Positions 9,801 to 47,887 of a stretch of DNA of 64,000 bases are shown here, in pieces. A model generated the notes under the pieces. The model saw only the letters and a program-made list of their open reading frames with translations. It did not search any database and was not told the DNA's origin. Source of the stretch: a virus (taxonomy: Duplodnaviria; Caudoviricetes); the IMG/VR virus record IMGVR_UViG_3300043084_000165, positions 27,704 through 91,703 of that record; one strand, written 5' to 3'. A program made the translations under genes and the position numbers. The first letter of the stretch is position 1; every line of letters begins with the position of its first letter.

Positions 9801-10025
9801 GGCGAAACTATTCAGTTTGATTGCATCATTGAGTATATGCTTAACAACACTAAGTCATCTGATGCATGGACGTTGGGTGTGATGGTTCGTACATCACTGT
9901 ATGCTGATCCACTTTATTATCAGATTCAGATTGTTGCGAAGTACAATCAGTCAACATCAGACTTATTGAATTCAGCCAAGACATCGGTTGATTCGTTGAC
10001 CAAATATAGTGTAACAGTACGCTAA
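6891..10025 (+). CDS. Large putative virion structural protein
   Basis: 1044 aa, beta-rich with central coiled-coil; first gene of a structural block. Confidence 0.55.
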   Translation: MTATECLLQISELTKQNLQILQVLNDSFYTKSNHLSAVVGDTTYTIPSYIALENKVNHLQDAFNNLVHAAKAGETWFNFDGNSKEVLVRGYQQAPSPVDLTPQTSFETEAKTLFKDMLTPQPYLNFDMSALPDDIHQVVVKKIVPYSLALKNQFYANCSDISTQGTVQLDWTDVVRILASADTGDFVSGTDYLEYDTIYDLPVRNCVRSGSYIVEKVVTDQITENLENVLTLSIHADTPLTRTSFDGRTIDNLQPGDELVTYDGSAKLKVRTINFNSGLLEVLVESGEYVNIIGSSDSSNPSDYSILKLYSSSETARELHIPLEEDQYVYITIAPLNPRLNLQSNWSTGLYCNVDNLTLKDTDTGFRKYYNDNVLNLGDALIELGTVSYPSITRYTEDQMATLTTAPATDDINLDVVQINKHLNDSDTVKNIRALYSQKKQYQADLSEVQSRIASLTESLAEISFDDMSGTRSAYTAQIAELQDQQNELTTSINKIIDNIATSANDATIPLESAKFRARGYLDVEAIAKRIAEAMPVIGSSELGIQEVTTSVESIRENILGIQCRYRYRNADIPQANVSVIGDKFLFTEWSTYNPPLRERSMVYSDGSYEITRDDVDSSGFKYSDNVPKFNQLDIPISQGENVELQVRIIWGFGYPFVTVASEWSDALTVEFPDELAQDVQVTTIIEENNSDIETNRFDTILSNKGITAHADDSIDDQDITYFHKPESISSGFYTSERRIIPLKDKLQDMSADITELQDMIEGTGSDILSAKFIVDGAATTLLPDVNNVVQLPAWISVSESEDSVPTGSSYKKDSWVYSTGSLTLTNTTEHTVYLFSVFPGSRDITVDKRQYKIFPSDDFQIDNDKSKSGVGIVWTADDTQTTIKSVAYKQRCNQIITFRRTNPYDGSPLGPLGASDYPNFNEYNASHDQATGVCNTNKPAGLFVYPMSPNQYGLCMDADAVNAKYRLAPGETIQFDCIIEYMLNNTKSSDAWTLGVMVRTSLYADPLYYQIQIVAKYNQSTSDLLNSAKTSVDSLTKYSVTVR

Positions 10026-16471: not shown

Positions 16472-17032
16472 TTAAAATACCACATGTTTAGCCTCAACCG
16501 GCTCAATGATGTTATAACCAATCCCCAACACTTCACATTGTTGCTTCATGGCTGCGATGTTCTCTGCATCATCCTCAAAGATCATCATGTTGACCTCATC
16601 CTGTTGATTCCAGTACTGAAGCTGATTGACCACTGCTGCCTTGAACTGCGCTACTGTGCTGTATTTATTTGCATCGAAAGTGTGAATGTTTTTATATAAG
16701 ATGTTGACGCCCTTCTCGCGCAACCAATCATACAACATCTCTTTCTTCTGTCGCGCGGTTACGATGTGCGCATTGGTGATGTCCGTACCCAGGTTCTTGA
16801 GAATCTCAAAGGCTGGAAGAGTGGGTTCCTTGAGGATTTGCTCGAGAGATTCAAACTCTGTAAAGTCCCAGTGCATGCCGGGAGATAAGAACTTCTCTGT
16901 GCTATCAGGCGCATTAAACACCTTCGTGCCCGCGCGGAACACCTCGCGTCCGTTGCGGTCCAGTGCACGTACGCATGCGGTGGTTGCAATCAGGGTATCA
17001 TCAACATCGAATATATATAGGGTCTTATTCAT
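16472..17032 (-). CDS. HAD-superfamily phosphatase
   Basis: FDVDDTL, VTAR, K, FEDD. Confidence 0.8.
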   Translation of the reverse strand: MNKTLYIFDVDDTLIATTACVRALDRNGREVFRAGTKVFNAPDSTEKFLSPGMHWDFTEFESLEQILKEPTLPAFEILKNLGTDITNAHIVTARQKKEMLYDWLREKGVNILYKNIHTFDANKYSTVAQFKAAVVNQLQYWNQQDEVNMMIFEDDAENIAAMKQQCEVLGIGYNIIEPVEAKHVVF

Positions 17033-17152
17033 ATCTTTTATGTTTTGGAGTTCGTTTATATATCTTTTTAGAGTCGGGTCCTCTGCTTATCATCCTGCGT
17101 CTGATGAGTTGGGCGAGCTCTCGCTCACCCCAAGACTCAGAACCAATTCGGA

Positions 17153-17884
17153 TCACTTTTCGAGGAGACTTGCCATTGCTTCGCATATGTCTTCGTTTGA
17201 TTTAATATAATCCAGTACCTTCTTGATGCGCTGAGAGATACGACCCGAGGTTACGTTCAGTTCTGCTGCGAGCTCAGTTACTTGCTTCTCCGGCACTCCA
17301 CATACTCCGAAGAATGAGTAGAAGCAGTATGCATCAGTGGCGTTGCAATGAGTATCAACCTCGGTCTTCAACAGTTCCATCGGGTCACCGTCTTCAAACT
17401 TCGCGCTCTCATACACACCGTAGCGCATCTCGCGATTCATATTCTCGTTGTCACCTGCGGGGTTCATCACTGCTGAGATGCTCACCGTGGTGAATGTGGT
17501 AGCGCCAATGCCAGGAGCCGCATTTTCGCATACCTCAGCGTCAGCAGCTACATCAGCCTGAGTCTTCTTGATCTGCTCCTGTGTATAGCTGGTCAGCTTC
17601 ACTGTGTGGAGCTCTGTGCAAGAGCAGTTGCGGATGTTGTTCAGCATTGCAAACGCAGCGAACTGAGTGAAGTTCATCTGTGAGCGTTCAGGATCGTATG
17701 TATTCATCGCGATAGTCAGACCTTCGTAAGCCATGGACTTGAGTGTGTACCAATCGGTCTTGAGACGACGGTGCCACTGCGAAACAATCTTGTTCACCAG
17801 CGGCTCGAATTGACGAGCGATCTGATTGCGAACTTCTGCAGGTGCTGCAGCAAATGACTGACGGAGATTTGTAATTGCTTCCAT
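17153..17884 (-). CDS. Sigma70-family sigma factor
   Basis: Region 2 (PLVNKIV..LKSMAYEGL..YDPER..FTQFA) and region 4 HTH (ELAAELNVTSGRISQR). Confidence 0.8.
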   Translation of the reverse strand: MEAITNLRQSFAAAPAEVRNQIARQFEPLVNKIVSQWHRRLKTDWYTLKSMAYEGLTIAMNTYDPERSQMNFTQFAAFAMLNNIRNCSCTELHTVKLTSYTQEQIKKTQADVAADAEVCENAAPGIGATTFTTVSISAVMNPAGDNENMNREMRYGVYESAKFEDGDPMELLKTEVDTHCNATDAYCFYSFFGVCGVPEKQVTELAAELNVTSGRISQRIKKVLDYIKSNEDICEAMASLLEK

Positions 17885-21177: not shown

Positions 21178-21211
21178 AGAGATATATAACAAAAGGAGCT
21201 CCAATATTTAA
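21178..21211 (-). promoter_or_regulatory. Phage promoter TTAAA-N18-TATAT
   Basis: Consensus match; overlaps terminator hairpin 21189-21230. Confidence 0.7.
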
Positions 21212-21231
21212 TTGAAACTCCTTTTTGTTTT

Positions 21232-21609
21232 TCAAAATTTTTTCACAAGTGCTATCCCGTGGGTGAATTGTGCAACTTCTTCGTAACCACGGCGCTTATA
21301 CCATTCAAGAATCCATAGATCAGAGTCTCGTTCGTCCCAGTCAATTTCAACAGTGTCGACACCATAGGTATTTCTGAGCATATTTTCCATTGTTTCAAGA
21401 GCCCAGGACCCATGATTGTGACCCCGCACTGATTCGTTTACATATAATGAACATATATATGCTCGAATCTTCACATCAGTGGTTGGAATAGTCATGGGTT
21501 CATTGTATACAAACGCCTGAACACTCACCCCAAACTCTGAAAGCAAGAGCAGGCGCCTATGATCGTGCCATTCCTGCTCTTGAAATAATGTTTGAAATAC
21601 GTCACACAT
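21232..21609 (-). CDS. GNAT-family acetyltransferase
   Basis: YICSLYVNESVRGHNHG (motif A), WYKRRGY (motif B). Confidence 0.8.
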   Translation of the reverse strand: MCDVFQTLFQEQEWHDHRRLLLLSEFGVSVQAFVYNEPMTIPTTDVKIRAYICSLYVNESVRGHNHGSWALETMENMLRNTYGVDTVEIDWDERDSDLWILEWYKRRGYEEVAQFTHGIALVKKF

Positions 21610-21611
21610 GA

Positions 21612-22586
21612 TTAGGTCAACTGTTCAAGTTCGCGGATCTCTGCGGAGGTTACCTCTGACGTAAACTTAGAGTCTTTAATTCCTTTGGTAATCAGGCCAA
21701 TTACCGAGCTCTGGTGTAAGCTCTCTGCGTGACACATGAGAACCTTGTAGTCGAGAATGCGTGCGTCTGTATCCAGTTCTTTGGCGAGCACACGGGTGGC
21801 GTCTTCGATGAACTTCTGATAGGTGTAATTGAGTACTGCGAACTCAGCCTCATCCTCACGCTTCACAATCGCCTGACACTCTGTAACCAACGAATTGCGG
21901 CAGTGGTCAATGATATCCTCAATCCATACCATATCCTCAAACTCAATGGTTACAGCTGCTGTGGAGCGCTGAGAATGGGGATTGGCACCAACACCACGAA
22001 CCTCACCAACATAACGCGACAGTGCGGTAGAACACTTACATGCGCTTGAGTACTGCCAATAAACAGTGAGTTTCTTTGTAAACTGACCTGCGCGATCCAG
22101 TGATGCATCCAGTACACAGTGAACAATGTAGTAACCAACATTCGGGTTGCCTGCATCATCTACAGATACCAGCGAGTTCTGAGTGACGTAATAGTCAAAC
22201 TCAAGCTTGAGGTTGGTGTTGAATGATTCCTGATCCTTCTGATACTGTTTGAGAATGGCTTCCAGGTGGTTAATGTCAAACACCTCATCCTTTGACTTAT
22301 AGAAGGTGCGGATGATGCGCGACATATTCAGACCCAGCTTGTAGGACTGCACATCGCAGAAACCATGAATAGATGCAAGAACTGTTTGAGTGCCACCATC
22401 ACGCTGAGAGATAGTCAACGGAACTCTGAAGTTGGAGATACCAACCATATCAATATAGCGACCCTCGAACTCGGAGTTCTGCATGTCCGGCATGTTATCG
22501 AGATATTCCTGGGTGGGAACAAACTTGCCATAGAACGGCACGAGATCGCTTACTTTTACTTCTGATTTACTCATATATGTTATCAA
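21612..22586 (-). CDS. folE2: GTP cyclohydrolase type IB
   Basis: MPDMQN, IDMVGI, GLNMSR, YSSACKCS, PHSQRS, VKREDE, KFIEDATR, ESLH. Confidence 0.9.
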   Translation of the reverse strand: MITYMSKSEVKVSDLVPFYGKFVPTQEYLDNMPDMQNSEFEGRYIDMVGISNFRVPLTISQRDGGTQTVLASIHGFCDVQSYKLGLNMSRIIRTFYKSKDEVFDINHLEAILKQYQKDQESFNTNLKLEFDYYVTQNSLVSVDDAGNPNVGYYIVHCVLDASLDRAGQFTKKLTVYWQYSSACKCSTALSRYVGEVRGVGANPHSQRSTAAVTIEFEDMVWIEDIIDHCRNSLVTECQAIVKREDEAEFAVLNYTYQKFIEDATRVLAKELDTDARILDYKVLMCHAESLHQSSVIGLITKGIKDSKFTSEVTSAEIRELEQLT

Positions 22587-22600
22587 TTTTTAATGCTTAA

Positions 22601-22628
22601 ATATAGTTTATTGGTGCGGTTGGTTTAA
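22601..22628 (-). promoter_or_regulatory. Phage promoter for folE2-GNAT
   Basis: TTAAA-N18-TATAT. Confidence 0.65.
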
Positions 22629-23095
22629 TCCATAATGACCAGTCCCGGCTCTTTATCTGCAAGCACTCCCCACAGTCCCACTGAGCGTAGAGTGGTAGCA
22701 ATGTCCAGCGCAAGGTGTTTCGGAAGTTCACTTTCTTTCTCAATGAACTGCTCATAGGCGGTTTTCGGTGAGGACTCTTTGGTGAATCGTGAGCACTCCC
22801 AGTCAATCACAAGTGCGAGTGCGTCAATGTCGCGGCGACGTTTATCAAGAGTTGCTTCTCTGTAGTATTCTTTGTGATGCGCGCGATGAGTTCTGTGCCA
22901 GTGCTGCACCCAGTCATAGGGCGAACTTTTTCTGAGTACATACTTTGCCCATAACAGCAAGAACGGCTTCTCTACATCGTGTAAGAGGAATCGCGGTCTC
23001 CATACTCGAAGATTGAGTGCTGTCATCTGATAGGCGCACCAATGAGCAGCTGTATATGCAAAACCTGCTCGTTCGTCTCGGGTGAATTTTCTCAT
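22625..23095 (-). CDS. HD-like phosphohydrolase (DUF5662-like)
   Basis: H...LLHDVEK...HRTHRAHHKEY...VIDWE metal-binding pattern. Confidence 0.6.
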   Translation of the reverse strand: MRKFTRDERAGFAYTAAHWCAYQMTALNLRVWRPRFLLHDVEKPFLLLWAKYVLRKSSPYDWVQHWHRTHRAHHKEYYREATLDKRRRDIDALALVIDWECSRFTKESSPKTAYEQFIEKESELPKHLALDIATTLRSVGLWGVLADKEPGLVIMD

Positions 23096-23126
23096 TGTTG
23101 TTACAATTTAGATGTTGAATGATTTA

Positions 23127-23154
23127 ATATAGAAAAAGCCCAACCATGGTTTAG
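23127..23154 (-). promoter_or_regulatory. Phage promoter within terminator hairpin
   Basis: CTAAA-ccatggttgggctttttc-TATAT. Confidence 0.65.
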
Positions 23155-23169
23155 ATAGTTGGGCTTGGG

Positions 23170-23280
23170 AAATGGGTTATGGTGATGGGTTAATTGGCTG
23201 ATTATCAGCGTTGTAGCGCTGTAACAGCGCCGTGGTGACAATATTTTGCTCTTATATAGTTTAATAATGGTGATGGTTAA
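23170..23280. repeat. Dispersed intergenic element family II, copy 2
   Basis: ATGGTGATGG x2, CTGATTATCAG palindrome, GGTGACAATA, TTTGCTCTTATATA. Confidence 0.6.
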
Positions 23281-24701
23281 CGGTCTGGGTGACGTCGTCG
23301 GTCGTCCCAAAACATTGTGATTCCGAGTTTGTTCGTGTACTTCTGCACAGACTCCTTTGAGATGTCTTGCATAAGTGGTGCGTAACAGTAGCAGTATGTA
23401 TTGAGTTGCTTGATATCCTTGTTGTTATCACATAGGTTGTGAATAGCCTTGTACATGTTCCAGTACTCAGAGTCGGGATCAGAGGTGAGCTTGTCTTTGT
23501 CTTTATCCATGAGTAAGTCAAGAACAGTAAATACTACACGATGCTTGTGCCATTTCTTATCATCCTCCTGAGCGTCTTTATATGCTTGCTCCAACCCCTC
23601 AAGATGCTTTTTGACATAACTTTCATAACCCTCCACTTTAGATTTGGTGGTAGAAGAGTCCTGATCAAGCAACTTAAAGGATCCACCGAAGCCTTTGGTT
23701 GGTTCATAATCATGCACATCATGTTCCTCGTTGAACTCTGCGAGCTTCTGTTCGCGTTCCGAGCGAGACTCGATCTTCAGGATGTCCTCAAGCTTTTCAA
23801 ATTCCTTCTTGTCATCTGCGCTGAGACAACCCTTTAGCAAGCGTCTATAACGCTCAGAGAACTCAGGAACCTGCAAAATACGCATGTGCATCAGACCCAG
23901 GTGATTGTTATATTCTTTCTTATACTTTGCAATCATCTTCTTGTCAAACTCTGGGTCGTTGACTATATGTAACCATGACTGTGCACCTTCGATATCTTTA
24001 TCATACAACATCTGTGCCCATTCCTGAGTGTAGGGGGTTTGCATAACCACAACCACATGCTTATAACCCATCTTTTTAACATAGGTTAAAAAGCGGGCCG
24101 CACAAACCCAGGTGTACTTTTTTGCGATGTCTGGTTTTTCAGCGAAGTGGTCCCATTCGTCGTAACGATATGGATAGTACTGGGAGCACTCAAGCGGTAT
24201 GATACCGGGGTTGGAAATGCAGGCGCAGTCTGTAAACGCTCTATACCTGTCCAGGAAAAGATTCTTGCGGATCTTTGAGTCAACATATGGTTTTGAGTTA
24301 GAACACTCAAACACGGTCAACACATCACGCAGACGTTTATTTTCTGATAGACAGAACTCAGTCAGCGTCCAATAGTGCGGGTGCATGAGCTGGTATTCGG
24401 TCTCACCAATCAGTCCATCCAGGTCCCACTTATCACGGGGAATGACCTCTTCTGAGGCTTTGAGAATGGGTACGCAAACGTCTTTTGCATATGCGATGAT
24501 ACCAGCACGTTTGTGGTCGCCGGTGATGTTATATTTACGTGTCAACTTTTCAAATCGTGACTTGAAATGTTTCGCCCACAGATACTTGTGCATGCCAATC
24601 TTGTAATAAATGGCATTGTCAGAGGTGGGAGAGTCTGACGATTCATTTATTGAGTCTATGGAACTCGTGTGGTTCCATAGGTATTCCGAAATGTCGTACA
24701 T
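23277..24701 (-). CDS. ArcS/DUF5591-like protein (archaeosine synthase catalytic-domain homologue)
   Basis: LTVFECSNSKPYVDS and ISNPGIIPLECSQYYPYRYD resemble ArcS PCSxxKPYSxS and TSPxGxVPxExExxYP; lies between queE and folE2. Confidence 0.6.
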   Translation of the reverse strand: MYDISEYLWNHTSSIDSINESSDSPTSDNAIYYKIGMHKYLWAKHFKSRFEKLTRKYNITGDHKRAGIIAYAKDVCVPILKASEEVIPRDKWDLDGLIGETEYQLMHPHYWTLTEFCLSENKRLRDVLTVFECSNSKPYVDSKIRKNLFLDRYRAFTDCACISNPGIIPLECSQYYPYRYDEWDHFAEKPDIAKKYTWVCAARFLTYVKKMGYKHVVVVMQTPYTQEWAQMLYDKDIEGAQSWLHIVNDPEFDKKMIAKYKKEYNNHLGLMHMRILQVPEFSERYRRLLKGCLSADDKKEFEKLEDILKIESRSEREQKLAEFNEEHDVHDYEPTKGFGGSFKLLDQDSSTTKSKVEGYESYVKKHLEGLEQAYKDAQEDDKKWHKHRVVFTVLDLLMDKDKDKLTSDPDSEYWNMYKAIHNLCDNNKDIKQLNTYCYCYAPLMQDISKESVQKYTNKLGITMFWDDRRRHPDR

Positions 24702-24724
24702 TGTTATAGATATATATACAATAA

Positions 24725-24755
24725 TAGAGCGAAGCTCCTGACGAACTTCGCTCTG
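24725..24755 (-). terminator. Hairpin downstream of queE
   Basis: TAGAGCGAAG ... CTTCGCTCTG stem. Confidence 0.5.
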
Positions 24756-24775
24756 TACTATAGATCTGATGCGGG

Positions 24776-25579
24776 TTACACCCCACGCTTGTCATTCCAT
24801 ATTCTGATGTGTAAGCGGTCGCAGAACCTCCAGCCGGTCCTGATGCATGCATTAACGGTTTCTTTGGATTTTGCTTCAAGCTGCTGGATGGTCGCACCCT
24901 CAGGCATGAGCATGATGTGTTGATCCAGATGATCAATATCCCATTCGGCACGGGTCCCATACTTGTCGGTGAGTGTATCGTTCAAACGTGCTGCGATATC
25001 ATAAATCTCACACAATGAATCTTCGCCTGAGTATACAAACTTGAGTTGATAGTCAGATTCAGCCTCGTGGATGATTGTTGCCAGAGCATCGAGGTTGATG
25101 CGCTTTGACTTATGAGCCTCCTGACGAGCTTTGGGGATATCAGTTCCCTCAAAGTGGCAACTCGTTGAGAGCTTTGGAGATACTGACCAAAAGATCCCCT
25201 CCACCATCAGCTCGGGTTTGGGTGTAATGGTGCCGTTGGTCTCAATGGTGATGAAGTTATACATACCCTGGGCTCGCATACCGGCGATCAAATCAATAAG
25301 AGAGTCCTGTTGACAAAGCGGCTCACCGCCAGTGATTACGATGTGACACATATCCGCTACTGTATCCTTTAACAACCCCTTAACCGCCTTGATGACCTCT
25401 TCAGTGGTCATGATCTTAGACTTCTCCGGGTTGATGGATGTATAAGGTGTGTCACACGTGGAGCCTCCCTGGAATGCGCAGCACAGGTTACATCCGTTCA
25501 ATCGAATAAATACTGAGGGTGCACCTGTATACTTTCCCTCACCCTGAATGGTGGGACCGAAAATTTCGTTAATATTCAT
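24776..25579 (-). CDS. queE: 7-carboxy-7-deazaguanine synthase (radical SAM)
   Basis: EIFGPTIQGEG..G.PSVFIRLNGCNL, CDT, ITGGEP, IETNG, SVSPKL, LKFV, RLHI.IW. Confidence 0.95.
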   Translation of the reverse strand: MNINEIFGPTIQGEGKYTGAPSVFIRLNGCNLCCAFQGGSTCDTPYTSINPEKSKIMTTEEVIKAVKGLLKDTVADMCHIVITGGEPLCQQDSLIDLIAGMRAQGMYNFITIETNGTITPKPELMVEGIFWSVSPKLSTSCHFEGTDIPKARQEAHKSKRINLDALATIIHEAESDYQLKFVYSGEDSLCEIYDIAARLNDTLTDKYGTRAEWDIDHLDQHIMLMPEGATIQQLEAKSKETVNACIRTGWRFCDRLHIRIWNDKRGV

Positions 25580-25581
25580 AA

Positions 25582-26190
25582 TTACTGTGCTTTGGGTAAA
25601 ACAATCTGTTGTTTAATAGTCGGGTTGGTCACATTTGCACCATCACCAAAGAACATGTTATAGAGCCCCTTCGACCAGCTCTTCAGTACTCCTGTTGAGA
25701 ATCCGATCTGCGGAATCCACAGGTCATTCCAAAGATGCTTCACATCATCCACATCGGCAGTGGCGCGACCAGTTGCAGTCTCATGAACTGTCACAGACTT
25801 AACCTTCAGATCCGGATCCTCGCCATTGGCTGTTATGGTGTGTTCCATGATGAACTGAACCATGCGCAAGAAGAAGACTGACAACATCTCCGCAGACGGG
25901 TTGAACGGAACCATCACCCAGCGATCATTATGATTTTGGAAGAACTTCACATACTCGTCCGAATCTGTTGAGCAGATCACATGACAGTGGTCAAAGGTAT
26001 CAATAAACTCCTTGATAGTGCCTTTCATCAAGCCGAAATCATACAGCATCTCTGCATTGTCCAGCTTGCGACCCTCGAACGTGAGTTCAAGCTTATATGA
26101 ATGACCATGCACACTGTGCGAACAACGATCCGAAGTACAGTTGCGCACCACATGCGAACCTTCGAAGTTGAAAATTTTTGTTATCTCCAT
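25582..26190 (-). CDS. queD: 6-carboxytetrahydropterin synthase
   Basis: FEGSH..C..HGHSY, DFG, FDH, NPSAE, VHET. Confidence 0.92.
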   Translation of the reverse strand: MEITKIFNFEGSHVVRNCTSDRCSHSVHGHSYKLELTFEGRKLDNAEMLYDFGLMKGTIKEFIDTFDHCHVICSTDSDEYVKFFQNHNDRWVMVPFNPSAEMLSVFFLRMVQFIMEHTITANGEDPDLKVKSVTVHETATGRATADVDDVKHLWNDLWIPQIGFSTGVLKSWSKGLYNMFFGDGANVTNPTIKQQIVLPKAQ

Positions 26191-26213
26191 GTCTTAAAAA
26201 TTTATATGTAAGA

Positions 26214-26241
26214 ATATATATCATTGAGCATCAGGATTTAG
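26214..26241 (-). promoter_or_regulatory. Phage promoter for queD-queE
   Basis: CTAAA-N18-TATAT overlapping the end of the upstream gene. Confidence 0.65.
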
Positions 26242-26982
26242 CATTTCTTTCAGGCTTTTAGCCTCGCTAAAGTCCATTGTTACCCCCACACCAGTTACTT
26301 TCTTTATATAACGCTCCGGAGTTGTCACCTCCTTGTTGTTCATGTCATATACCTGTACCGGCTTAGAACACTGGGTGAGCATGCAAATCGGGTTGTGGGT
26401 CACACAAAGTATAGTTTGGAACTTTTTTGCAATAGTTTCGTTCCAGGTCATCTGCATACGAATGTCCAGACCCTCATCAATCTCATCAATGATAATCAGC
26501 GGATACCAGGCCTCACCAGCGGCGATAGTCTTGTCGCGAATGTCAATAATCTTGCGGATGAAGCGCACGAACTGAATCATAGTGGATTCGCCGCGAGAGC
26601 GTCTCATGGCGATCATACCCCCACCACAGACTAAACCTCCTGCTGTTGCAGCGTTGATAAAACTTGTCGGATCATCTGCCTGTGCGTCAAAACTGAAGAT
26701 GTGAGTGAAGGGGGTGTCAGTTTCAATGGTTATATCCTTGTCGCGAATGACCCACTGACCATCTTCAATGCGGTTGTCCACCATACCTTCAAAACTCTTT
26801 TGACGATCTTTGGCAAGCGAGTCATTAGTGGCGCGGAGCGCACGAAGAATTGTTGACTTTCCACAACCATTAGTGCCGGTGACATATGTGATACCGTCCT
26901 GCACAGGAATTGTAAAGGTTTCCCCTGCTTTGAACTTGCGGTAATCCTTATTGATTTTGACTGTGATCCTGTTTTCTAACAT
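26221..26982 (-). CDS. Stand-alone ABC/SMC-type ATPase
   Basis: GTNGCGKS, signature-like SRGES, IIIDEIDEGLD, VTH. Confidence 0.8.
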   Translation of the reverse strand: MLENRITVKINKDYRKFKAGETFTIPVQDGITYVTGTNGCGKSTILRALRATNDSLAKDRQKSFEGMVDNRIEDGQWVIRDKDITIETDTPFTHIFSFDAQADDPTSFINAATAGGLVCGGGMIAMRRSRGESTMIQFVRFIRKIIDIRDKTIAAGEAWYPLIIIDEIDEGLDIRMQMTWNETIAKKFQTILCVTHNPICMLTQCSKPVQVYDMNNKEVTTPERYIKKVTGVGVTMDFSEAKSLKEMLNPDAQ

Positions 26983-26987
26983 GACGT

Positions 26988-27200
26988 TTACGAATTTGCG
27001 CGGTTAACTAATTCTTCCTGGATTCCTGAGTCTACATCGGCCCAAAATGCTGCAGCAGCACCAATCATTCCCTCGGTTCTACAAAGACTCATCCATTTGA
27101 GCCATATGTATTCTGCTCTGTCACCGAAGAGGCTCTTGCACTCGTCTTCGCTCCATGTATTCCACATGTACTTGAGGTAGTTGTCTATAATCTTTCTCAT
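26988..27200 (-). CDS. Hypothetical protein
   Basis: 70-aa ORF behind promoter. Confidence 0.6.
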   Translation of the reverse strand: MRKIIDNYLKYMWNTWSEDECKSLFGDRAEYIWLKWMSLCRTEGMIGAAAAFWADVDSGIQEELVNRANS

Positions 27201-27231
27201 AATGTTCTTGTATGCGCTTTAGTGCGCTCTC

Positions 27232-27265
27232 GAAGATATATAACAAAGGTAGACTATATATTTAG
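27232..27265 (-). promoter_or_regulatory. Phage promoter CTAAA-N18-TATATATCTTC
   Basis: Consensus match. Confidence 0.75.
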
Positions 27266-27283
27266 TGTTAGAATCAAAAATTT

Positions 27284-27377
27284 GCGCATTTATTTGCGCT
27301 ATATGCGCATCAAATAAAAAAGGTGAAGACTTATATTGTCTCCACCTAGATCGCTCGTTAGAGCGCATTAAAATATG
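27284..27377. repeat. Palindromic dispersed element family I, copy C
   Basis: GCGCATTTATTTGCGCT...GGTGAAGAC/GTCTCCACC hairpin...GTTAGAGCGCATTAAAATA; termini shared with copies A and B. Confidence 0.75.
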
Positions 27378-27386
27378 TTATGTGAA

Positions 27387-27845
27387 TTACTGCGCTGCAA
27401 GTACCTGATTGAACAACGCTGCAATCTCCCCACCCTGCGCAAGAGGAAGTTTGTTGCGAACCGCTGTCATAAGCGCCTTCATATCTCGTTTAGACAGCAC
27501 ATAGTCCGGTTTGTCTGCAAGGTACTCCTCGATAGCCTCTGTGAGAGCATCACGAACCTCCTCGGTTGTGGGTCCCTTAGGAATGAACTGCTCCAGTACC
27601 TCCAGTTCGGCGCGCTCAGCAGCGGCCAGATCTGCACGTCCTCCAGCTTCGTACTGTGTAATAGAGTCTTTGCGTTGTGCTGCCATCTTGAGCAGGATCT
27701 TATTCTTAGTCTCCTGGTTGATGGTTGCTCCTGACTTCTCTGCGTTGACAAACTCACACTTGATGAGCTTATATATCTCCAGTTCAGGTGAACGCGCTTT
27801 AGTTGCCTGAATGATCAGGTTGTCAATATCTTGTTTTAGTGCCAT
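27387..27845 (-). CDS. yqeY: GatB/YqeY-domain protein
   Basis: QRKDSITQYEAGGRADLAAAERAELEVLEQFIPK, DMKALM. Confidence 0.85.
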   Translation of the reverse strand: MALKQDIDNLIIQATKARSPELEIYKLIKCEFVNAEKSGATINQETKNKILLKMAAQRKDSITQYEAGGRADLAAAERAELEVLEQFIPKGPTTEEVRDALTEAIEEYLADKPDYVLSKRDMKALMTAVRNKLPLAQGGEIAALFNQVLAAQ

Positions 27846-28704
27846 ATTCTCTAAATTTATTTACGTTACGAATGATTAAGTCTTTGGTTTTCTGCGACAA
27901 GCGCTTAGTCATGAAGTCATCGATGATGATGTCCGGTTTGGTTGGCTCCTCTTCCAGCTCATAACCAGCAATTCCACACTTGACAGGATAACCAGTGTCG
28001 ATGGTCTTTATGTAGTTCCCATATAACTTCTTTTCCATGGGACAATGTGAGCCCAGCAAGTGCACATGATGGAACTTCTTGAGCAACAACTCAGCCTGTT
28101 TAACGAAGCGAACTCGGCCCGCTGCATAACGCATATCATCTGTACCCCAAACATGACCACCATCATCAGCCATATTATTCACAAACATCTCCATGGCATT
28201 GTTGTCGGGACACTGTTTATAGAATGAATTGTGAAATGGAATGGCTACGTATTTGAGTCTTTCATTGTAATACAACATCAGGCAATCAAACAATTCATCG
28301 GCAGTGTTGCCCTGCGCTACAGCCAAAGGCTTCGGGATGTAATGGGCACTGAATGCAAACGAATGGATAATGTCTGAGAAATAATACTGGCTCAGGAATT
28401 TGAACGTTTTATCAATTGTCTTATCCTTGTCCATGAGCACATCGGGAAGAATGAATAAGTCTGGTCGCAGGTCAATGATAGCATCCGCATATTCAGCTAA
28501 GTCCAGAGTCTCTCCTTTTACATAGAACTCATAAGCCGAGTTGTCAAAGATCATCAGGCGACCCGGATTCTCATGCCTCATCCTCTTGTAGTACTCACGG
28601 TACTTAGGATACTGCTTATATAGGTGGAAAAGAACAAAATCATATTCATTGAGCTCCATGTTCATATCGAGCATGGTAAGCGGGAGTTCTGAGTTAATCT
28701 TCAT
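27823..28704 (-). CDS. TGT-fold DNA transglycosylase-like protein (DpdA-like)
   Basis: IFDNSAYE, ILPDVL, VAQG, HVHLLG, TIDTG match the ordered TGT/DpdA barrel motifs (DSG.F, D, V.QG, H.LG, S.DS); near que genes. Confidence 0.7.
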   Translation of the reverse strand: MKINSELPLTMLDMNMELNEYDFVLFHLYKQYPKYREYYKRMRHENPGRLMIFDNSAYEFYVKGETLDLAEYADAIIDLRPDLFILPDVLMDKDKTIDKTFKFLSQYYFSDIIHSFAFSAHYIPKPLAVAQGNTADELFDCLMLYYNERLKYVAIPFHNSFYKQCPDNNAMEMFVNNMADDGGHVWGTDDMRYAAGRVRFVKQAELLLKKFHHVHLLGSHCPMEKKLYGNYIKTIDTGYPVKCGIAGYELEEEPTKPDIIIDDFMTKRLSQKTKDLIIRNVNKFREYGTKTRY

Positions 28705-29187
28705 TTACTTGCGTTGTTTATCGTTCTGAAACTGACCTTCATAGGTGTTCTCCACTGGAGCGGTCTCTGTGACAATTGCCTGAGCGATACGGGCACCCCG
28801 GTCGATGATTGTCGGACGAAGTACCTGCAAGAAACATCCTCCCTTCTCGGTCTGGAACCCTGCATCAAACTGACCTGAATGAACTAGCACTCCATTGCGT
28901 ACTAGGGAGCTGCGAGTATGAAATCTCAGTGCTGCGTTGTTAGGCACTTTAATGCCTTCCATGAGTTCCGCCTCATAGTAACCAGGATCTAACAACCAGC
29001 TGCCATCTTTGGGCTCAATCTTGCTGGTTTCAGGAAGTGAAGTCTTGCCTTGTGCAGGGACATAACCCACACCCGACAATCTATATAGCGCACTAATGCG
29101 CACATCTATACCTTGCTGCTGAACAGCATTCTCTGCATAGTTCGAAACAATTCCTGCCTCGACTATTTGTTTTCCGGTGTATTGCAT
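28705..29187 (-). CDS. Trimeric dUTPase/dCTP deaminase family
   Basis: GIDVR, TRSSLVRNG, FDAGF, RIAQ, YEGQFQ. Confidence 0.8.
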   Translation of the reverse strand: MQYTGKQIVEAGIVSNYAENAVQQQGIDVRISALYRLSGVGYVPAQGKTSLPETSKIEPKDGSWLLDPGYYEAELMEGIKVPNNAALRFHTRSSLVRNGVLVHSGQFDAGFQTEKGGCFLQVLRPTIIDRGARIAQAIVTETAPVENTYEGQFQNDKQRK

Positions 29188-29786
29188 TTGTTCAATTTTA
29201 TTGTTTTAACTTCAATATTAAGATAGTCAAGAATCTCATCAGTTATAGCTACACAACAACCGCGCCATAAAATTTTCTTGTCAGGACCGAATGTTGGCAC
29301 AAATACGACTTTGATATCATGACCATCCAGTTTTAATGTGGTTGATGTCGTTTTTTGAGATGCGCTCGCAATCTCACGACCCAATTGCCCTAGGATGTAA
29401 TTGGCTGCATGTCTGAGGTTTACAGTGGGCACTATACGCACATAGCTGTCCTCACCATCCTCAAAAAAGAAGAAGTGTTCATGTGCTACACTGTCGGTGC
29501 CCCAACCGGGTTTCTTCTTGTCATAGTCACTATATAATTCCACCAACAAGTCGTCCCAGGGTTGTGAGCGAAACTTCTCAGAGATCATCCACTCGCCTGG
29601 CCAGCCCGTTGGGTTGCGTAACACTACATCCACATCATGTCGTTGAAGATTGCCACCATTATTCCAGTCGGGTCTGTAGATGACTTTGTTTGGGAACAAT
29701 TCTTTATATAGTGCATCTGCGCGTGGCCACCAGGTGCGTTCATACTTTAATCCTTCGTTAAATGTATTCATAATCTTACATGTCAA
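29163..29786 (-). CDS. Putative PD-(D/E)XK nuclease
   Basis: QRHDVDV...SEKFR...DLLVELYS...PGW pattern. Confidence 0.4.
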   Translation of the reverse strand: MTCKIMNTFNEGLKYERTWWPRADALYKELFPNKVIYRPDWNNGGNLQRHDVDVVLRNPTGWPGEWMISEKFRSQPWDDLLVELYSDYDKKKPGWGTDSVAHEHFFFFEDGEDSYVRIVPTVNLRHAANYILGQLGREIASASQKTTSTTLKLDGHDIKVVFVPTFGPDKKILWRGCCVAITDEILDYLNIEVKTIKLNKCNTPENK

Positions 29787-30726
29787 ATAAGTTTGCTTCT
29801 ATGTGACCATCCCAGTTGAGGTCCTTCAGACCTACGTTGCTCAGGATTCGATTGATAGGGTCTAGTACACACTTTTGAAACATTGCCTTACGGTCAATGG
29901 GTACGTACTGCTCGGCCCACTTGGGGAGCGCTGAGGGTTGGAATGTGAATATCACATCATTGTCGGTCTTCTTTTTCGGAGTGTTGGGCTTTACGATGTA
30001 ATATTTCATCTTACCATTGTACAGGGGTTCGCCTGGCAGACCTTTAGTTTGCCTCAACCAATTGTAAAAAGCAAGACCGCGCACCTGGAATGGACACCCT
30101 TTCTTAACCACCACTCCCTGTAGAGGATCATCATCTGAGATTACATAGTCCATATAACCATTCACTGAAATGGCAGGTGATATATGGTCTATATCTGCTA
30201 CCTCCCAGGCACGGCGCCCCTCTTGGCAGATTGCATTGAGCTCGTGGATGAGAGTGGGCGACTCAGACATCAGCAGGTGTTTAACCAGTTTTGTCAACAA
30301 GTCGCGTGCGGGTGCTGGGAAGCTTGCCTTAACCATTTCCAAACCCTTGGTTTTAGACTTCAAGTGATCCTCATCGAAGTACTTACCATCCTTGAAGATG
30401 AGCATCTGTGAATAACGCTTCTTGACATCCAACCGAATCTCTGAGTATGAAATAGTCTCCAGCTCGAATTCATGAACCATGTCCGTGTCTACGTTGCGTA
30501 TATTTCTGCCACGATAGTACTCAGTCATGATCTCTTTATTATGACCATTCAAGAACTTCTCGCTGAGCGCTACTAATATCTTTGCCTTATCTGTAATGGA
30601 CATATTCTCAACTCCTTCAATGGTGTCCAACAAACCTTCGTAACAGAAATAAATAGAATCCGTATCCCCTGCCACCGGCTGAACCAGAATGGTTTTGTCT
30701 TTTATATATGTATTTTCAATTTCCAT
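29776..30726 (-). CDS. Family B DNA polymerase, C-terminal part (motif C, thumb)
   Basis: AGDTDSIY, FELE, KKRY, KTKGLEMVK.S.P, PFQVRG..YN. Confidence 0.9.
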   Translation of the reverse strand: MEIENTYIKDKTILVQPVAGDTDSIYFCYEGLLDTIEGVENMSITDKAKILVALSEKFLNGHNKEIMTEYYRGRNIRNVDTDMVHEFELETISYSEIRLDVKKRYSQMLIFKDGKYFDEDHLKSKTKGLEMVKASFPAPARDLLTKLVKHLLMSESPTLIHELNAICQEGRRAWEVADIDHISPAISVNGYMDYVISDDDPLQGVVVKKGCPFQVRGLAFYNWLRQTKGLPGEPLYNGKMKYYIVKPNTPKKKTDNDVIFTFQPSALPKWAEQYVPIDRKAMFQKCVLDPINRILSNVGLKDLNWDGHIEANLFDM

Positions 30727-30756
30727 ATATCAATTTTGTTGGTTAATAATGTTTTA

Positions 30757-30784
30757 ATATACCATTATTCAGGTGCATGTTTAA
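30757..30784 (-). promoter_or_regulatory. Promoter for the polymerase C-terminal gene, overlapping the endonuclease 3' end
   Basis: Exact TTAAA-N18-TATAT about 30 bp upstream of ATG 30726. Confidence 0.65.
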
Positions 30785-32384
30785 TATACAGCGTATGTTT
30801 GACATGTCCCGAATCCCATATCTTGTGATAGGGTAGTTCAGACATTATCTCAGCCTCCGTCCTGCTTATATCAAACCCCAACTGTGCCAGTCGAGTCTTG
30901 CAGAATGATGTTCTGTGATAACGCTGGTTGGTCTGTTTGTGGATGTACCAATAGGCTGGGGTTATTTTGTTATCAGTTTCAAAGCCCAACTTCTTATATA
31001 CATCACCATTACTGATATCGTTTGAACTGAACGAAACTATTTTGTCTGGGTTGTGCTGTTTTATAAACATCTTTATAAATCGTGCTGCCAGGCCCAGGAT
31101 CTGCCAGTTCAACAAAGTACAGAAGCGGGTCAGTTCCCAGCAATCATCATTCTTTCCGCCGGACAACTTAGAGCGCTTTGCAAAGCACATCACCCCCACC
31201 AGCTCGTCTTTGTAGTATGCACCCAGGTGCACAGAGGATCTTGAAGCTCCCTGTAAGTGGTTGGCATTCAAGAAGTTATTGCAGTCTCGCGATGGAATCT
31301 GTCTCAGTTTACATTGTCGTGCGCCGATGCGAACCTCATAAATGCCCAACTTGGACAGTATGACAGACTTAACTATATCAGGGTGATTTGCAAACTGATC
31401 ATCCCATATAGTCAACAACTGATACCCCACACTACGCGCCTCGATGTACTTATCCATATGATATTTATAAGGCTTGAGCGCCTCTGAGTGCCACCAGTCA
31501 CCGTTACACTCAATAGCTATTTTGTACTGAGGCAGTACAATATCCAGGCCCTTGTGGGATGGTAGAATGGAGCGATCTTCACGAAGAAGAGTTTGCACAC
31601 CATGGGTTGCGAGCAGTTCTCTGATGGAGCGCTCCGTAAATGACATTTTGTTCTTACCAACTTGCAGTGGGTGTATGGTTGTACAGGGTTCTATATTGAA
31701 TTTCTTTCGCGTATGATAGTGTTTGGGGTGGATTTTATAGGTTCGCTGCTCGCATTTGGTGCATTCGGAATGAGGGCATTTACGTATCTGATAATCACCG
31801 TCCCAGCCGATCAAATCGGGGTCTGTACTGAGATCGCGCAGTATTTTAGAGATTTTTTTTCTAAACTCCGCGGTTTTTGTATGATGATCTACTCCGTACT
31901 TCTCCAGTGAGTTAGTGCGACGCACATCCTGTACTTCTGCAGCCTGTGACGGATAATCCGTACCATAACGCTCATTATATATAGACTTCAGCTTAGACTT
32001 AACCTCCTCTGCCTGGTATGGGTTGTCTACACCATAATGCTCCTGACATGTCCTGCGTGCAGCTTTTCGATTGTTATAGTTTATATCCCCATAACGCTCC
32101 ATTTTAGTACGCTCAGCCTTACGGACACACTCTTTGTCTTTATAAGTACAGGCTGTCGAGCAATGTACATTATAACCATGTACAAAGTTGCGATAAGCCG
32201 TCGGCGCGCCACAAACAACACAGACATGAGGTTCGGGGTGTAGATATCTATACAGTTTCTCCGAAAAAGTCCCACCATCCAGGGACTCTATGTATTCATA
32301 AAACTCCGGATAGCGGGCTTTGAAGAACTTTGGACTTGGCTTAGTCAATTTGCATAAACTTTCTTTATCAGGGAAATTTGTCAT
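30765..32384 (-). CDS. Homing-endonuclease-like protein, paralogue 2 (splits DNA polymerase)
   Basis: Same architecture as 14832; ATG overlaps the stop of the polymerase N-half. Confidence 0.78.
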   Translation of the reverse strand: MTNFPDKESLCKLTKPSPKFFKARYPEFYEYIESLDGGTFSEKLYRYLHPEPHVCVVCGAPTAYRNFVHGYNVHCSTACTYKDKECVRKAERTKMERYGDINYNNRKAARRTCQEHYGVDNPYQAEEVKSKLKSIYNERYGTDYPSQAAEVQDVRRTNSLEKYGVDHHTKTAEFRKKISKILRDLSTDPDLIGWDGDYQIRKCPHSECTKCEQRTYKIHPKHYHTRKKFNIEPCTTIHPLQVGKNKMSFTERSIRELLATHGVQTLLREDRSILPSHKGLDIVLPQYKIAIECNGDWWHSEALKPYKYHMDKYIEARSVGYQLLTIWDDQFANHPDIVKSVILSKLGIYEVRIGARQCKLRQIPSRDCNNFLNANHLQGASRSSVHLGAYYKDELVGVMCFAKRSKLSGGKNDDCWELTRFCTLLNWQILGLAARFIKMFIKQHNPDKIVSFSSNDISNGDVYKKLGFETDNKITPAYWYIHKQTNQRYHRTSFCKTRLAQLGFDISRTEAEIMSELPYHKIWDSGHVKHTLYIKHAPE

Positions 32385-34219
32385 GCTCGTTTTGGTTTCA
32401 ATTTGATTCCCAGTTCCTTGTGAAGATCGGTCATTTCATACCAATGTTCTTGAAATAGGGCTGGAATGTCGCGTTCCATAATGTGAATTAGGTTACGACC
32501 CTCGCCAGTGATGTCATTAGCAAGGTGGATATTAAACCAGGCAAATGCCACATGTGAAGATCCACCGTACATAGAGTTCATAATCAGCTTGATGGCCTGT
32601 TCCTTACATGTCATGAACGTGATGTCATCTTTAAGACGTGGTTTGAGTGCTTTGAAGTTATATTGTGCCAGCTCCTCAGAATTTCTTGCATTGCAACCAA
32701 ACTCTCTAAGTTCTTCCTGCACATGTTCTGAATACTCTCTGAACGGTGCTGTACGACCCTCAATCAAGTGATCAATATCTGTCATTACTGTGGCATCCAG
32801 TTCCTTTGAGAGGTACTTTGTAACACCGCGAAGCTTTTTAAGGCCCCACTGAATGTTCTTAAACGCGTAGTCTTTGTCGTTTTTATATACACATCCGTTT
32901 ACTGAAACAAAGTAGTTTGGGTCTTTTTTATATACCTCCAGCTGTTTCTCTGTGAATTTACCATCTGCAAGCGATCCCAAATAGTTCTCAATGGAAAGAT
33001 TGCATGTGATGATGACCGATGGATAAAGTGATGCGAAATCTTGGCAGCATACAAATTGGTGCTTACCTGGTGTAGTTTTTCGCACATAAGCACCCATCAG
33101 CTCTCCACGTTCTCCAGTAAACTTATCCGGCGGAACTACTTTAATGTTGTGTTCATAAAAGTAGTTGAAGAACATGGACTCAGTGATCTTGATCTTTGAA
33201 AATGCTGTTGAGATATCATTTCGACAGATGAGTGACTGTACGTACAAAATACTCAGAGTCTTGAACTTCTTGTCAATCAGCTGCACCAACACAGAGTCAA
33301 TCATGTTATAAAAGACATATGTGGCGTAGTCTGTCTCATACAGGTGCTGCAGGTCTCCATCATACTTAATCTTACCCACACCGATACTCTCAGTGGCGAT
33401 GTAATCCAGTGCCAAACTCTCTTTAATGGGCATTACCGCCATGTCATAAGTTCCCACAATGTCCATCATATCAAGGATGAGCGTGTGGTTAGGCATGTTC
33501 AAACGCACCTTGTTGCCTTTCATATCAGTGATTTGCTTGCCCTTCATCGTCCAATCCACTGAACAACTATTGAATGAGATCTCCGGGTAGAAGTTCTTGA
33601 CACGGTTCTGAATATACTGCCAGTCAAATCCGAGTGAGTTCCATCCTGCCAGTACCGGGCATTTTGCCACGAAATTCCGAAGGAAATAGTTGAGCATGTC
33701 GCCCTCTGAGCTGAAATAAATGTATTTGGCTGACGGGGTGGGAAGATGCAGGCTCTTGAAGAACTCACACTTGTCCAGCCACTCCTCATACTGACGAGTC
33801 ATGTTCTGCAAGTCTTCAAGCGGTTTGATACCCAACACTATGGCATCCAGCTTATCATTCACAATAGAGATGGTGAGGATGGGGAAGTCTGCCTTGTCGG
33901 GCTCGGGAAATATCTTTGGATCTACCTGACACTCAATATCAAATGTGTACAGGCGGGGATTAGTCTTACCTAACAATAATCGTCTATCTGCTTCAGGGAG
34001 CTCCTCAATGAATGTCTTGTACTCAGTCCATTCGGGGCGATCTGTCATGCGAACCGTGCACTTCTTTCCGTTCCAGTTCTCATACTGACCATTGGGATCT
34101 TCGGCGTAAGTCTTGAATCGATTTACGTTATATTTAAGCAGCGCCTTGCCACCTGTCTCCGTCACATAGGAGATAGTCATCTGATGCTTCTGCTTATGGT
34201 AATTGTAATCTAATATCAT
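32381..34219 (-). CDS. Family B DNA polymerase, N-terminal part (3'-5' exo, motifs A and B)
   Basis: FDIE, GWNSLGFD, YNMID, GAYV, DFASLYPS, KLIMNSMYG, ITGEGR. Confidence 0.92.
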   Translation of the reverse strand: MILDYNYHKQKHQMTISYVTETGGKALLKYNVNRFKTYAEDPNGQYENWNGKKCTVRMTDRPEWTEYKTFIEELPEADRRLLLGKTNPRLYTFDIECQVDPKIFPEPDKADFPILTISIVNDKLDAIVLGIKPLEDLQNMTRQYEEWLDKCEFFKSLHLPTPSAKYIYFSSEGDMLNYFLRNFVAKCPVLAGWNSLGFDWQYIQNRVKNFYPEISFNSCSVDWTMKGKQITDMKGNKVRLNMPNHTLILDMMDIVGTYDMAVMPIKESLALDYIATESIGVGKIKYDGDLQHLYETDYATYVFYNMIDSVLVQLIDKKFKTLSILYVQSLICRNDISTAFSKIKITESMFFNYFYEHNIKVVPPDKFTGERGELMGAYVRKTTPGKHQFVCCQDFASLYPSVIITCNLSIENYLGSLADGKFTEKQLEVYKKDPNYFVSVNGCVYKNDKDYAFKNIQWGLKKLRGVTKYLSKELDATVMTDIDHLIEGRTAPFREYSEHVQEELREFGCNARNSEELAQYNFKALKPRLKDDITFMTCKEQAIKLIMNSMYGGSSHVAFAWFNIHLANDITGEGRNLIHIMERDIPALFQEHWYEMTDLHKELGIKLKPKRA

Positions 34220-47083: not shown

Positions 47084-47124
47084 GTGATAAAATAACTAAC
47101 CCAACGCTTCACTTTAGCACTTAA

Positions 47125-47240
47125 ATCATATATAAGAGCAAACCATCACCCAATCATCGCGCACGTATTACAGTATTGATAATCAACGAGGTAAATCCCA
47201 ACCATCACCATCAGCACACACAAACTATTGTCACCTGACG
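47125..47240. repeat. Dispersed intergenic element family II, copy 3
   Basis: TTAC-AGTA-TTGAT-A-ATCAA-CGAG-GTAA then ACCATCACCATC, TATTGTCACC, TATATAAGAGCAAA. Confidence 0.62.
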
Positions 47241-47266
47241 ATTATATATAAAAACACACTTACAAC

Positions 47267-47887
47267 ATGAGTTTGTCACTGTCCCCACGATATGACCTGG
47301 TGCGATTTGCGTTTGATAAGGACTTCCTTCCTGAACCTGTCACCAAAAAGTGGCACAAGTTCCTGTTAAAGAACCCGGGAGTCATATCTACACCCATAGA
47401 TTACCTCAACGAATCCATTCGTGGTATTACATTCCCGGGCATTTCAGACCTAACCATCACACAGAGCCAACACTCTTCTAACTCTATCACTCGAACAGGC
47501 AACCGTATCAATGTAGAACCCAAACAGGACAATGCCACAGGCACTCCTGCCAATCCGCTGGACCGCATAGAGCGCAACATTACAGTTAAGTTCAGACTGA
47601 ACCAAGGTTTATATAACTATTGGATGTTGTATGAGACCATCTTTTATAGAATCTGTAAGCCGTGGTTGTATGACAAGGGTGATGATATGTTCATAGATGT
47701 ACTGAACGAAACAGGTAACCCGGTGTGTCGGGTGAAACTGTATCAGTGCCATATAACCGGACTGGATGGTTTGGAATTTGCCTTTGACAAGGTGGAACGC
47801 CAGTCTGATGAGTTTAGTCTGACTTTCACATTCAACAACATAGACTGCGATTTTGCTGATGAGCTGGTTGCAGATAGTGAAGACTAA
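47267..47887 (+). CDS. Tail-tube-fold protein (T4 gp3/gp19/gp54-like)
   Basis: ITFPGIS, ITVKFRL...NYW, LNETGNP..VKLY..ITGLDGLEF..FSLTF. Confidence 0.6.
   Translation: MSLSLSPRYDLVRFAFDKDFLPEPVTKKWHKFLLKNPGVISTPIDYLNESIRGITFPGISDLTITQSQHSSNSITRTGNRINVEPKQDNATGTPANPLDRIERNITVKFRLNQGLYNYWMLYETIFYRICKPWLYDKGDDMFIDVLNETGNPVCRVKLYQCHITGLDGLEFAFDKVERQSDEFSLTFTFNNIDCDFADELVADSED

Follow-up and report, generated by a model that had tools for sequence, protein, structure and literature searches.

We asked how a phage could build and finish a modified guanine from a locus that encodes early enzymes of 7-deazaguanine synthesis, a DNA transglycosylase and an ArcS-like protein, with no QueC in sight. The locus occupies positions 21232 to 29187 of a 64,000-nt stretch, hereafter the window, which comprises bases 27704–91703 of the 91.7-kb IMG/VR record IMGVR_UViG_3300043084_000165 (CheckV completeness 56%). 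Feature coordinates are positions in the window, and relatives are labelled G for records (the window record being G000) and L for loci. Phages are known to evade restriction by placing 7-deazaguanines in their DNA, and eight such bases have been described. A sequence-only reading of the window had placed folE2, queD, queE, TGT-like, ArcS-like and GNAT genes here, and its headline was a QueC-less route ending in a GNAT-decorated base. Profile searches with Pfam, PHROG and NCBIfam models, and for the TGT-like protein tblastn and fold comparison, found all six genes where that reading had put them, all on the minus strand. The locus is a genuine phage module for 7-deazaguanine modification of DNA: its kind is known but its configuration is new, its DpdA has the TGT fold, and its ArcS-type enzyme is authentic. 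The headline route was unsupported, and QueC most likely seems missing only because about half of the genome was sequenced. The DNA comes from a T4-like phage, uncultured and of gut or rumen origin, with a genome of ~160 kb; its host is probably a member of the Bacteroidales.

The pathway we propose, in which preQ0 is made, inserted into DNA by DpdA3 and converted by the ArcS-type enzyme to archaeosine (dG+), is moderately probable as a whole. From their family membership, FolE2, QueD and QueE would convert GTP to 7-carboxy-7-deazaguanine (CDG). QueC would then make preQ0, and would most likely be encoded in the unsequenced 44% of the phage genome, as it is in relatives. DpdA3, by homology, would replace guanine in the phage DNA with the deazaguanine, and the long ArcS2-type enzyme may act on the preQ0 nitrile already in DNA to give the amidine archaeosine or a near relative. 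We liken this last step to the reaction of the short ArcS2 from Vibrio phage nt-1, the only such phage enzyme shown to make dG+ from dPreQ0 (PMC10516641); together with DpdA2 it yielded dG+ in Escherichia coli without any RaSEA.

The transglycosylase had no Pfam match, and a profile search of the Protein Data Bank with its alignment returned chance matches only. When the 293-amino-acid protein was compared by tblastn with 50,697 GenBank phage records, only the Campylobacter CP220/CP21 group and Flavobacterium immuto phages matched (E 1e-12 to 2e-9, 25–29% identity, 84–100% of the query); Cellulophaga phiST was not among the matches. According to PMC10516641, CP220/CP21, immuto and phiST define the DpdA3 subfamily, and DpdA3 phages show complete replacement of G. 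An AlphaFold model built from seven homologues (predicted local distance difference test, pLDDT, 86.5) gave 186 Foldseek matches at E<=1e-3; among the matches listed all were tRNA-guanine transglycosylases (TGT) or DpdA proteins, including the TGT 2ash (E 1.4e-6) and the DpdA structure 7ui4, a DNA preQ0 insertase (E 8.3e-6). The model thus has the TGT-type (beta/alpha)8 barrel that the sequence-only reading had expected. Four motifs were invariant (DNSAYE, PFH, LGSH and DTGYPVK), and D54 in DNSAYE and D236 in DTGYPVK lie in contexts that we take to resemble the TGT motifs around the two catalytic aspartates. Judged by its sequence matches, the product is a member of the DpdA3 subfamily, for which base exchange in DNA is predicted from homology.

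With the established DpdA3 phages (CP220/CP21 carrying dADG, phiST dDG and vB_FspM_immuto fdPreQ1), the window phage shares the transglycosylase subfamily and a large myovirus-type genome of ~160–180 kb, and full G replacement would be expected here by analogy. The partners differ: the main text of PMC10516641 pairs DpdA3 with QueC*, DpdL or QueF plus DpdN and describes none of these phages with ArcS2, whereas here the partner is ArcS2 and the clade uses FolE2.

The suggested ArcS similarity of the 474-amino-acid protein was borne out by structure and profile comparison. The protein comprises a disordered leader (residues 1–25), a helical N-domain, a DUF5591 core (~111–340) and a winged-helix-like C-domain (~352–446), and its AlphaFold model was of high quality overall (pLDDT 90.3, predicted template modelling score 0.88), with low pLDDT over residues 1–25. 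Residues 111–340 superimposed on AF0587, a DUF5591 protein of Archaeoglobus (2q07_A), with Z 11.2 and a root-mean-square deviation of 2.5 Å over 151 residues; Foldseek recovered the DUF5591 fold at prob 1.00, and the best match in a viral structure library (BFVD) was the DUF5591 protein of Vibrio phage nt-1 (R9TEI9, TMt 0.68). Profile comparison with the 226-amino-acid nt-1 ArcS2 by hhalign gave 97.5% probability (E 4.9e-12, 133 columns), while tblastn with the single 474-amino-acid protein did not recover nt-1 at E<=1e-3. A search of 5.8 billion proteins returned 82 relatives, all metagenomic and mostly 440–495 amino acids long, and many family members carry a precomputed PF17884 mark. Searching viral contigs with the single protein found nothing; alignment-based scans did recover loci. 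C133, K137, P138 and Y139, which form the core of the ArcS C1 motif, were invariant in 26 aligned members. Structural matches to residues 352–446 at Z 5–6.5, a middling but consistent score, were mostly winged-helix domains, and this domain may hold the enzyme on DNA. Archaeal ArcS bears an RNA-binding PUA domain in the same place.

The substrate of archaeal ArcS is preQ0 within a polynucleotide or nucleotide, and not the free base (PMC11298593); a DNA-bound substrate is therefore to be expected here. What the window protein shares with the archaeal ArcS–RaSEA system (Thermococcus kodakarensis) and with AF0587, a split C-terminal form, is the DUF5591 fold and the C-x3-KPY core. The canonical archaeal layout of a TGT-like N-domain, a C-terminal PUA domain and a RaSEA partner was not found: the N-domain is helical, a winged-helix-like domain stands in place of PUA, no RaSEA occurs in the relatives, and the target would be DNA. 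The nt-1 system (DpdA2 with FolE, QueD, QueE, QueC and ArcS2, yielding dG+; PMC10516641, PMC6884629) is like the present one in its homologous ArcS2 core and in its logic, in that preQ0 is made, DpdA inserts it and a DUF5591 enzyme converts it. However, nt-1 relies on DpdA2 and FolE where the phage here has DpdA3 and FolE2, and its ArcS2 lacks the additional N-domain, winged-helix-like C-domain and head-targeting-like leader of the longer protein.

That leader is found on most ArcS-type members, as M-x-S/T-L-x-x-Y/F-I/L-x-E or a somewhat extended form with the same I/L-x-E end, and the first conserved block follows at once; the general pattern (M-x-x-hydrophobic-x-x-aromatic-I/L-x-E) was present in 61 of 83 family members. 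In sequence it resembles the T4 capsid-targeting sequence with its gp21 cleavage site. The T4 proteins that carry such sequences (IPI-III and Alt) are cleaved by gp21. The likeness extends to an N-terminal leader of ~10 residues ending in I/L-x-E, its occurrence on a minority of proteins and a gp21-type protease encoded by the phage, with the difference that the cargo here, by its predicted leader, would be a DNA-base-modifying enzyme. The strict 10-mer was enriched at N-termini: it was found at 13/163 N-termini against 3/968 internal methionines in G001, at 4/95 against 0/627 in the window record, and at 7/221 against 7/1306 in G002, and the ArcS homologues of both G001 and G002 carry it. A gp21-type prohead protease was absent from the window record and present in G001, G002 and G004. 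No convincing late-promoter motif was seen upstream of the ArcS-type gene.

Leaders of this kind also occur on other genes of the relatives. G001 encodes paralogues of ~230–255 amino acids with a leader and an acidic stretch (…EYINESLFD.EDDLLDK…) at 16708-17406, 47084-47800, 56726-57496, 98347-99096 and 110917-111672, reminiscent of a diversified internal-protein family, and a 75-amino-acid open reading frame (ORF) at 92939-93166 has the same start. Between queE and dpdA3, L017 (8474-9016) and L024 (8369-8974) carry a gene of 180–200 amino acids with a head-targeting-like leader and no Pfam match.

For the early steps, QueE matched PHROG 2076 at 176 bits and five NCBIfam QueE models, all under their equivalog cut-offs. 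QueD has the motif C-x4-HGH in the window and in relatives, one residue longer than the canonical C-x3-HGH; because the Cys and HGH are kept, it is not of the DpdL type. The G001 QueD has a second Cys directly before HGH. FolE2 scored 188 bits against Pfam GCHY-1 (PF02649, cut-off 25) and 212.4 bits against the NCBIfam FolE2 model NF010200, just under the cut-off of 215. The ORF as listed opens with TTG, but FolE2 synthesis probably starts at an ATG five codons further in (translation residue 5, ~22574). The sequence-only reading had singled out this enzyme as an unusual choice, and rightly so: among the 50,697 GenBank phage records there were three weak FolE2 matches only, and the main texts of PMC10516641 and PMC6884629 do not mention it. 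Within the clade, FolE2 was found in 8 of 15 records (the window record and 7 of 14 relatives, including all 3 complete ones) and FolE in none of the 15. FolE2 is the only cyclohydrolase seen across the clade; its use changes a component of the pathway and leaves the principle intact.

Neither QueC (PF06508) nor QueF (PF14489) matched anywhere in the 91.7-kb record, and QueF was also missing from the relatives, which we found by scans with family alignments. Two of these, G001 (158.6 kb, 97% complete) and G002 (197.5 kb with terminal repeats, 100%), have QueD, QueE, DpdA3, FolE2 and the ArcS-type gene, and both encode QueC 30–40 kb from the cluster as an intein-interrupted ORF of 652–703 amino acids; the two QueC proteins are 51% identical over their whole length. 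The intein, of ~390 amino acids, sits between QueC profile positions 124 and 125 (L011:6618-8576 in G001; G002:192021-194132), and that of G001 has a LAGLIDADG domain (Pfam). In G004 (62% complete), the only record with an ArcS-type gene among 12 others of the DpdA3 clade in IMG/VR, QueC is uninterrupted, as it is in the other clade members. QueC was present in 8 of those 12 records, including the only complete one, and the four without it are 10–47% complete. Hence each of the three relatives that carry the ArcS-type gene and reach at least 62% completeness (G001, G002 and G004) has its QueC outside the cluster. The pathway genes of this clade lie scattered (in G005, FolE2 lies ~90 kb from DpdA3 and QueC), and of the 17 ORFs in the 180–197 kb block of G002 that holds the prohead protease and QueC, none was matched in the window record. 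The reported absence of QueC and QueF therefore stands for the record as sequenced; for QueC it is unsupported as a property of the phage, given a completeness of 56% and relatives that encode QueC.

The closest colinear relative is L068 (JAAVFJ010000004.1, 62 kb; ArcS-type identity 67%), which extends ~28 kb beyond the coverage of the window record. It was binned in a metagenome-assembled genome (MAG) of the Bacteroidales whose bacterial contig has its own queE-queC pair, and the binning is a weak hint at a Bacteroidales host. Two ideas were set aside in the search for QueC: a G001 gene next to QueC was dropped as a synteny anchor in the window record, being a member of a multi-copy family, and the ATPase, YqeY and DUF5662 genes, suggested by their conservation in the very sub-lineage that shows no QueC, were rejected as stand-ins, as generic or unknown viral families without adenylating or PP-loop features.

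A phage QueC in the unsequenced part of the genome is quite likely. Alternatively, the phage could lack QueC and borrow that of its host, with phage FolE2, QueD and QueE making CDG, the host enzyme supplying preQ0, and DpdA3 and the ArcS-type enzyme following; we consider this unlikely. The absence of QueC from both the 91.7-kb record and its 62-kb colinear relative, the bacterial queE-queC pair of the MAG, and the discussion of host participation in phage deazaguanine modification (PMC6884629) are consistent with it, but all sufficiently complete relatives encode their own QueC, both records of the sub-lineage are fragments without the head module, and binning is weak evidence for a host. Far less probable is a QueC-independent route, in which CDG itself would be inserted or processed and the ArcS-type enzyme and the co-transcribed GNAT would build a new acylated or amino-acid-linked derivative. 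QueC is indeed unseen in the record, phages with dCDG and dDG are known without QueC (PMC10516641), and the ATG of the GNAT gene lies 2 bp after the folE2 stop, as the sequence-only reading had said. However, ArcS chemistry needs a nitrile and the ArcS-bearing relatives have QueC; the QueD is not of the decarboxylase (DpdL) type; no adenylating enzyme is present to activate the carboxylate, the ATPase being of a generic ABC type; and no GNAT homologue was found in genomes G001, G002, G004 and G005, nor in clusters L017, L024, L033, L034 and L068. Its place next to folE2 thus holds while its part in the system, on this check of co-occurrence, does not: GNAT is a passenger and not a conserved member, though co-transcribed with folE2 here. 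Beyond the lack of a RaSEA partner, nothing points to the undescribed amino-acid-linked or acylated base.

Several observations weigh against the pathway to archaeosine itself. QueC is missing from the window record and L068/C4, which together cover ~120 of the expected ~160 kb; no DpdA3 has so far been active in vitro or in E. coli (PMC10516641); the ArcS-type protein scored 24.5 bits against Pfam DUF5591 (PF17884), under the cut-off of 26; the published C1 motif, PC-x3-KPY-x2-S-x2-H, is only partly kept (EC-SNS-KPY-VD-S-KI-R in the window, with P, S and H not conserved across the 26 sequences); and the complete relatives have no RaSEA-type partner, so the reaction could end with an amine adduct. 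In G001, G002 and G004, searches for radical SAM proteins recovered QueE only, plus one weak match in G001 that we read as NrdG. An end product other than archaeosine, whether an amine or amino-acid adduct on the nitrile (preQ0-lysine-like) or the nitrile hydrated to an amide (dADG), is conceivable, if rather unlikely. The archaeal enzyme transfers lysine, and G+ is completed only with RaSEA (PMC11298593), an amidohydrolase role has been raised for phage ArcS (PMC6884629), the closest DpdA3 relatives come from dADG phages, and the family differs from nt-1 ArcS2 in its doubled length and diverged motif; yet nt-1 ArcS2 gave dG+ in E. coli with no RaSEA (PMC10516641), and there is no sequence evidence for a different amine donor. 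It is also doubtful, though suggested by the leader, that the ArcS-type protein is mainly delivered by the virion instead of working as a biosynthetic enzyme in the cytoplasm. The leader would then direct it into the head, the prohead protease would cleave it, and it would leave with the DNA, to act either on DNA that is packaged or newly entering or on some target in the host. The frequency of the leader in the family, its enrichment at G001 N-termini, the low pLDDT of residues 1–25 and the gp21-type protease of the relatives would fit such a role, as would the position of the gene, which has hairpins on both sides here and, in G001 and L033, is encoded on the strand opposite the que genes. 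Against this, the gene sits tightly inside a same-strand que cluster in L017 and L024, and the enzyme needs an amine donor that the capsid lacks.

QueD, QueE, DpdA3, ArcS and FolE2 recur together, closely packed on one strand in L017 and L024 and more loosely grouped in G001, G002, L033, L034 and L068. In the window, all sizeable ORFs between 21232 and 29187 lie on the minus strand, in the transcription order dUTPase/DCD, DpdA3, YqeY, 70-amino-acid ORF (orf70), ATPase, QueD, QueE, ArcS-type, DUF5662-like, FolE2 and GNAT (Table 1). Terminator-like hairpins on the coding strand split the stretch into four units: dut-dpdA-yqeY, orf70-ATPase-queD-queE, the ArcS-type gene alone, and DUF5662-folE2-GNAT. 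The ArcS-type gene is a separate unit because hairpins lie on both sides of it.

Table 1. Genes and terminator-like hairpins of the deazaguanine locus, in order of transcription (window coordinates; aa, amino acids).
Feature	Coordinates	Strand	Evidence or remark
dUTPase/dCTP-deaminase-like, 160 aa	28705..29187	(-)	Pfam DCD 49 bits; NCBIfam dUTPase 99 bits
DpdA3-family DNA 7-deazaguanine transglycosylase (by homology), 293 aa	27823..28704	(-)	tblastn and TGT fold; without Pfam match
YqeY/GatB-C-like, 152 aa, overlaps dpdA3 end	27387..27845	(-)	Pfam YqeY 77 bits
Terminator-like hairpin, end of dut-dpdA3-yqeY unit	27321..27347	(-)	
Small ORF, 70 aa	26988..27200	(-)	Conserved in L033 and L068
Stand-alone ABC/SMC-type P-loop ATPase, 253 aa	26221..26982	(-)	Pfam SMC_N and AAA_21
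QueD, 6-carboxytetrahydropterin synthase, 202 aa	25582..26190	(-)	Pfam PTPS 78 bits; TIGR03367 QueD 67 bits; PHROG QueD-like
QueE, 7-carboxy-7-deazaguanine synthase, radical SAM, 267 aa	24776..25579	(-)	PHROG QueE-like; NCBIfam QueE
Terminator-like hairpin between queE and ArcS-type gene	24726..24754	(-)	
Long ArcS2-type enzyme, 474 aa	23277..24701	(-)	DUF5591 profile, fold, nt-1 ArcS2 homology
Terminator-like hairpin 3' of ArcS-type gene	23136..23166	(-)	
DUF5662-like protein, 156 aa	22625..23095	(-)	DUF5662 similarity via L033 homologue and atlas clusters
FolE2, GTP cyclohydrolase IB	21612..22586	(-)	Pfam GCHY-1 and NCBIfam FolE2
Small GNAT-like acetyltransferase, 125 aa	21232..21609	(-)	Pfam Acetyltransf_1 23.4 bits (cut-off 20.7)
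Terminator-like hairpin closing DUF5662-folE2-GNAT unit	21191..21225	(-)	

YqeY, orf70, the ATPase and the 156-amino-acid protein are kept in place only in the sub-lineage of the window record, L068 and L033, and none of the four has features that fit a pathway step. YqeY is conserved next to DpdA3 only in L033 and L068. The ATPase has a homologue in L068, whereas neither G001 nor G002 matched it at E<=1e-4, and its atlas clusters are AAA_21 viral families; for the DUF5662-like protein, the L033 homologue matched DUF5662 at E 0.0019, and the atlas score to DUF5662 clusters was 0.96. None of the ATPase, YqeY, DUF5662 and GNAT genes is core; they are passengers or accessories of particular lineages. 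The dUTPase/DCD-like gene belongs with the adjacent DNA-polymerase module and not with the que genes; its homologue in G001 and G002 adjoins the polymerase, far from DpdA3.

Other features of the neighbourhood were seen in passing. A calcineurin-like metallophosphoesterase gene lies between dpdA3 and folE2 in G001 (L013:6984-7925), with a homologue elsewhere on the L068 contig. The DNA polymerase is encoded by two ORFs in the window (29776-34219) and by one ORF in L068/C4 (42995-45796), G001 (7195-9912) and G002 (110959-113901); because it is intact in these three relatives, the split here reflects a recent insertion. The gene that splits it (539 amino acids, 30765-32384) belongs to a multi-copy family with 6 copies in the record, the paralogues lying at record positions ~20.3-22.0, 25.7-27.3, 42.5-44.1, 70.8-72.4 and 80.7-82.4 kb, and at least 7 copies in G001. 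One G001 copy lies directly after QueC, and a G001 copy matches DUF7487; the family looks like mobile, homing-type genes.

What is new here is the combination of FolE2, DpdA3 and a long DNA-type ArcS2, which is unreported, and an ArcS2 that is twice as long as known ones, ends in a winged-helix-like domain and begins with a T4-style head-targeting-like leader conserved across its family. The dispersal of pathway genes over tens of kilobases in this clade is also a warning that gaps in a pathway can be misread from half-complete viral contigs. More tentatively, and on balance improbably, the ArcS-type enzyme may be loaded into the head through its leader and cut by the protease, so as to finish or maintain the modification on packaged or injected DNA; for want of a RaSEA partner it might leave an amidine adduct that is not archaeosine. 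If this were true, it would be the first DNA-base-modifying enzyme known as virion cargo and, in a DpdA3 phage, the first complete replacement of G by an archaeosine-type base. The finding bears on two questions in the field, namely the real product of ArcS2 without RaSEA and whether DpdA3 systems are completed after replication, perhaps in or from the capsid. For these abundant, uncultured T4-like phages of the gut and rumen, it predicts a genome that would be fully substituted with an archaeosine-type base.

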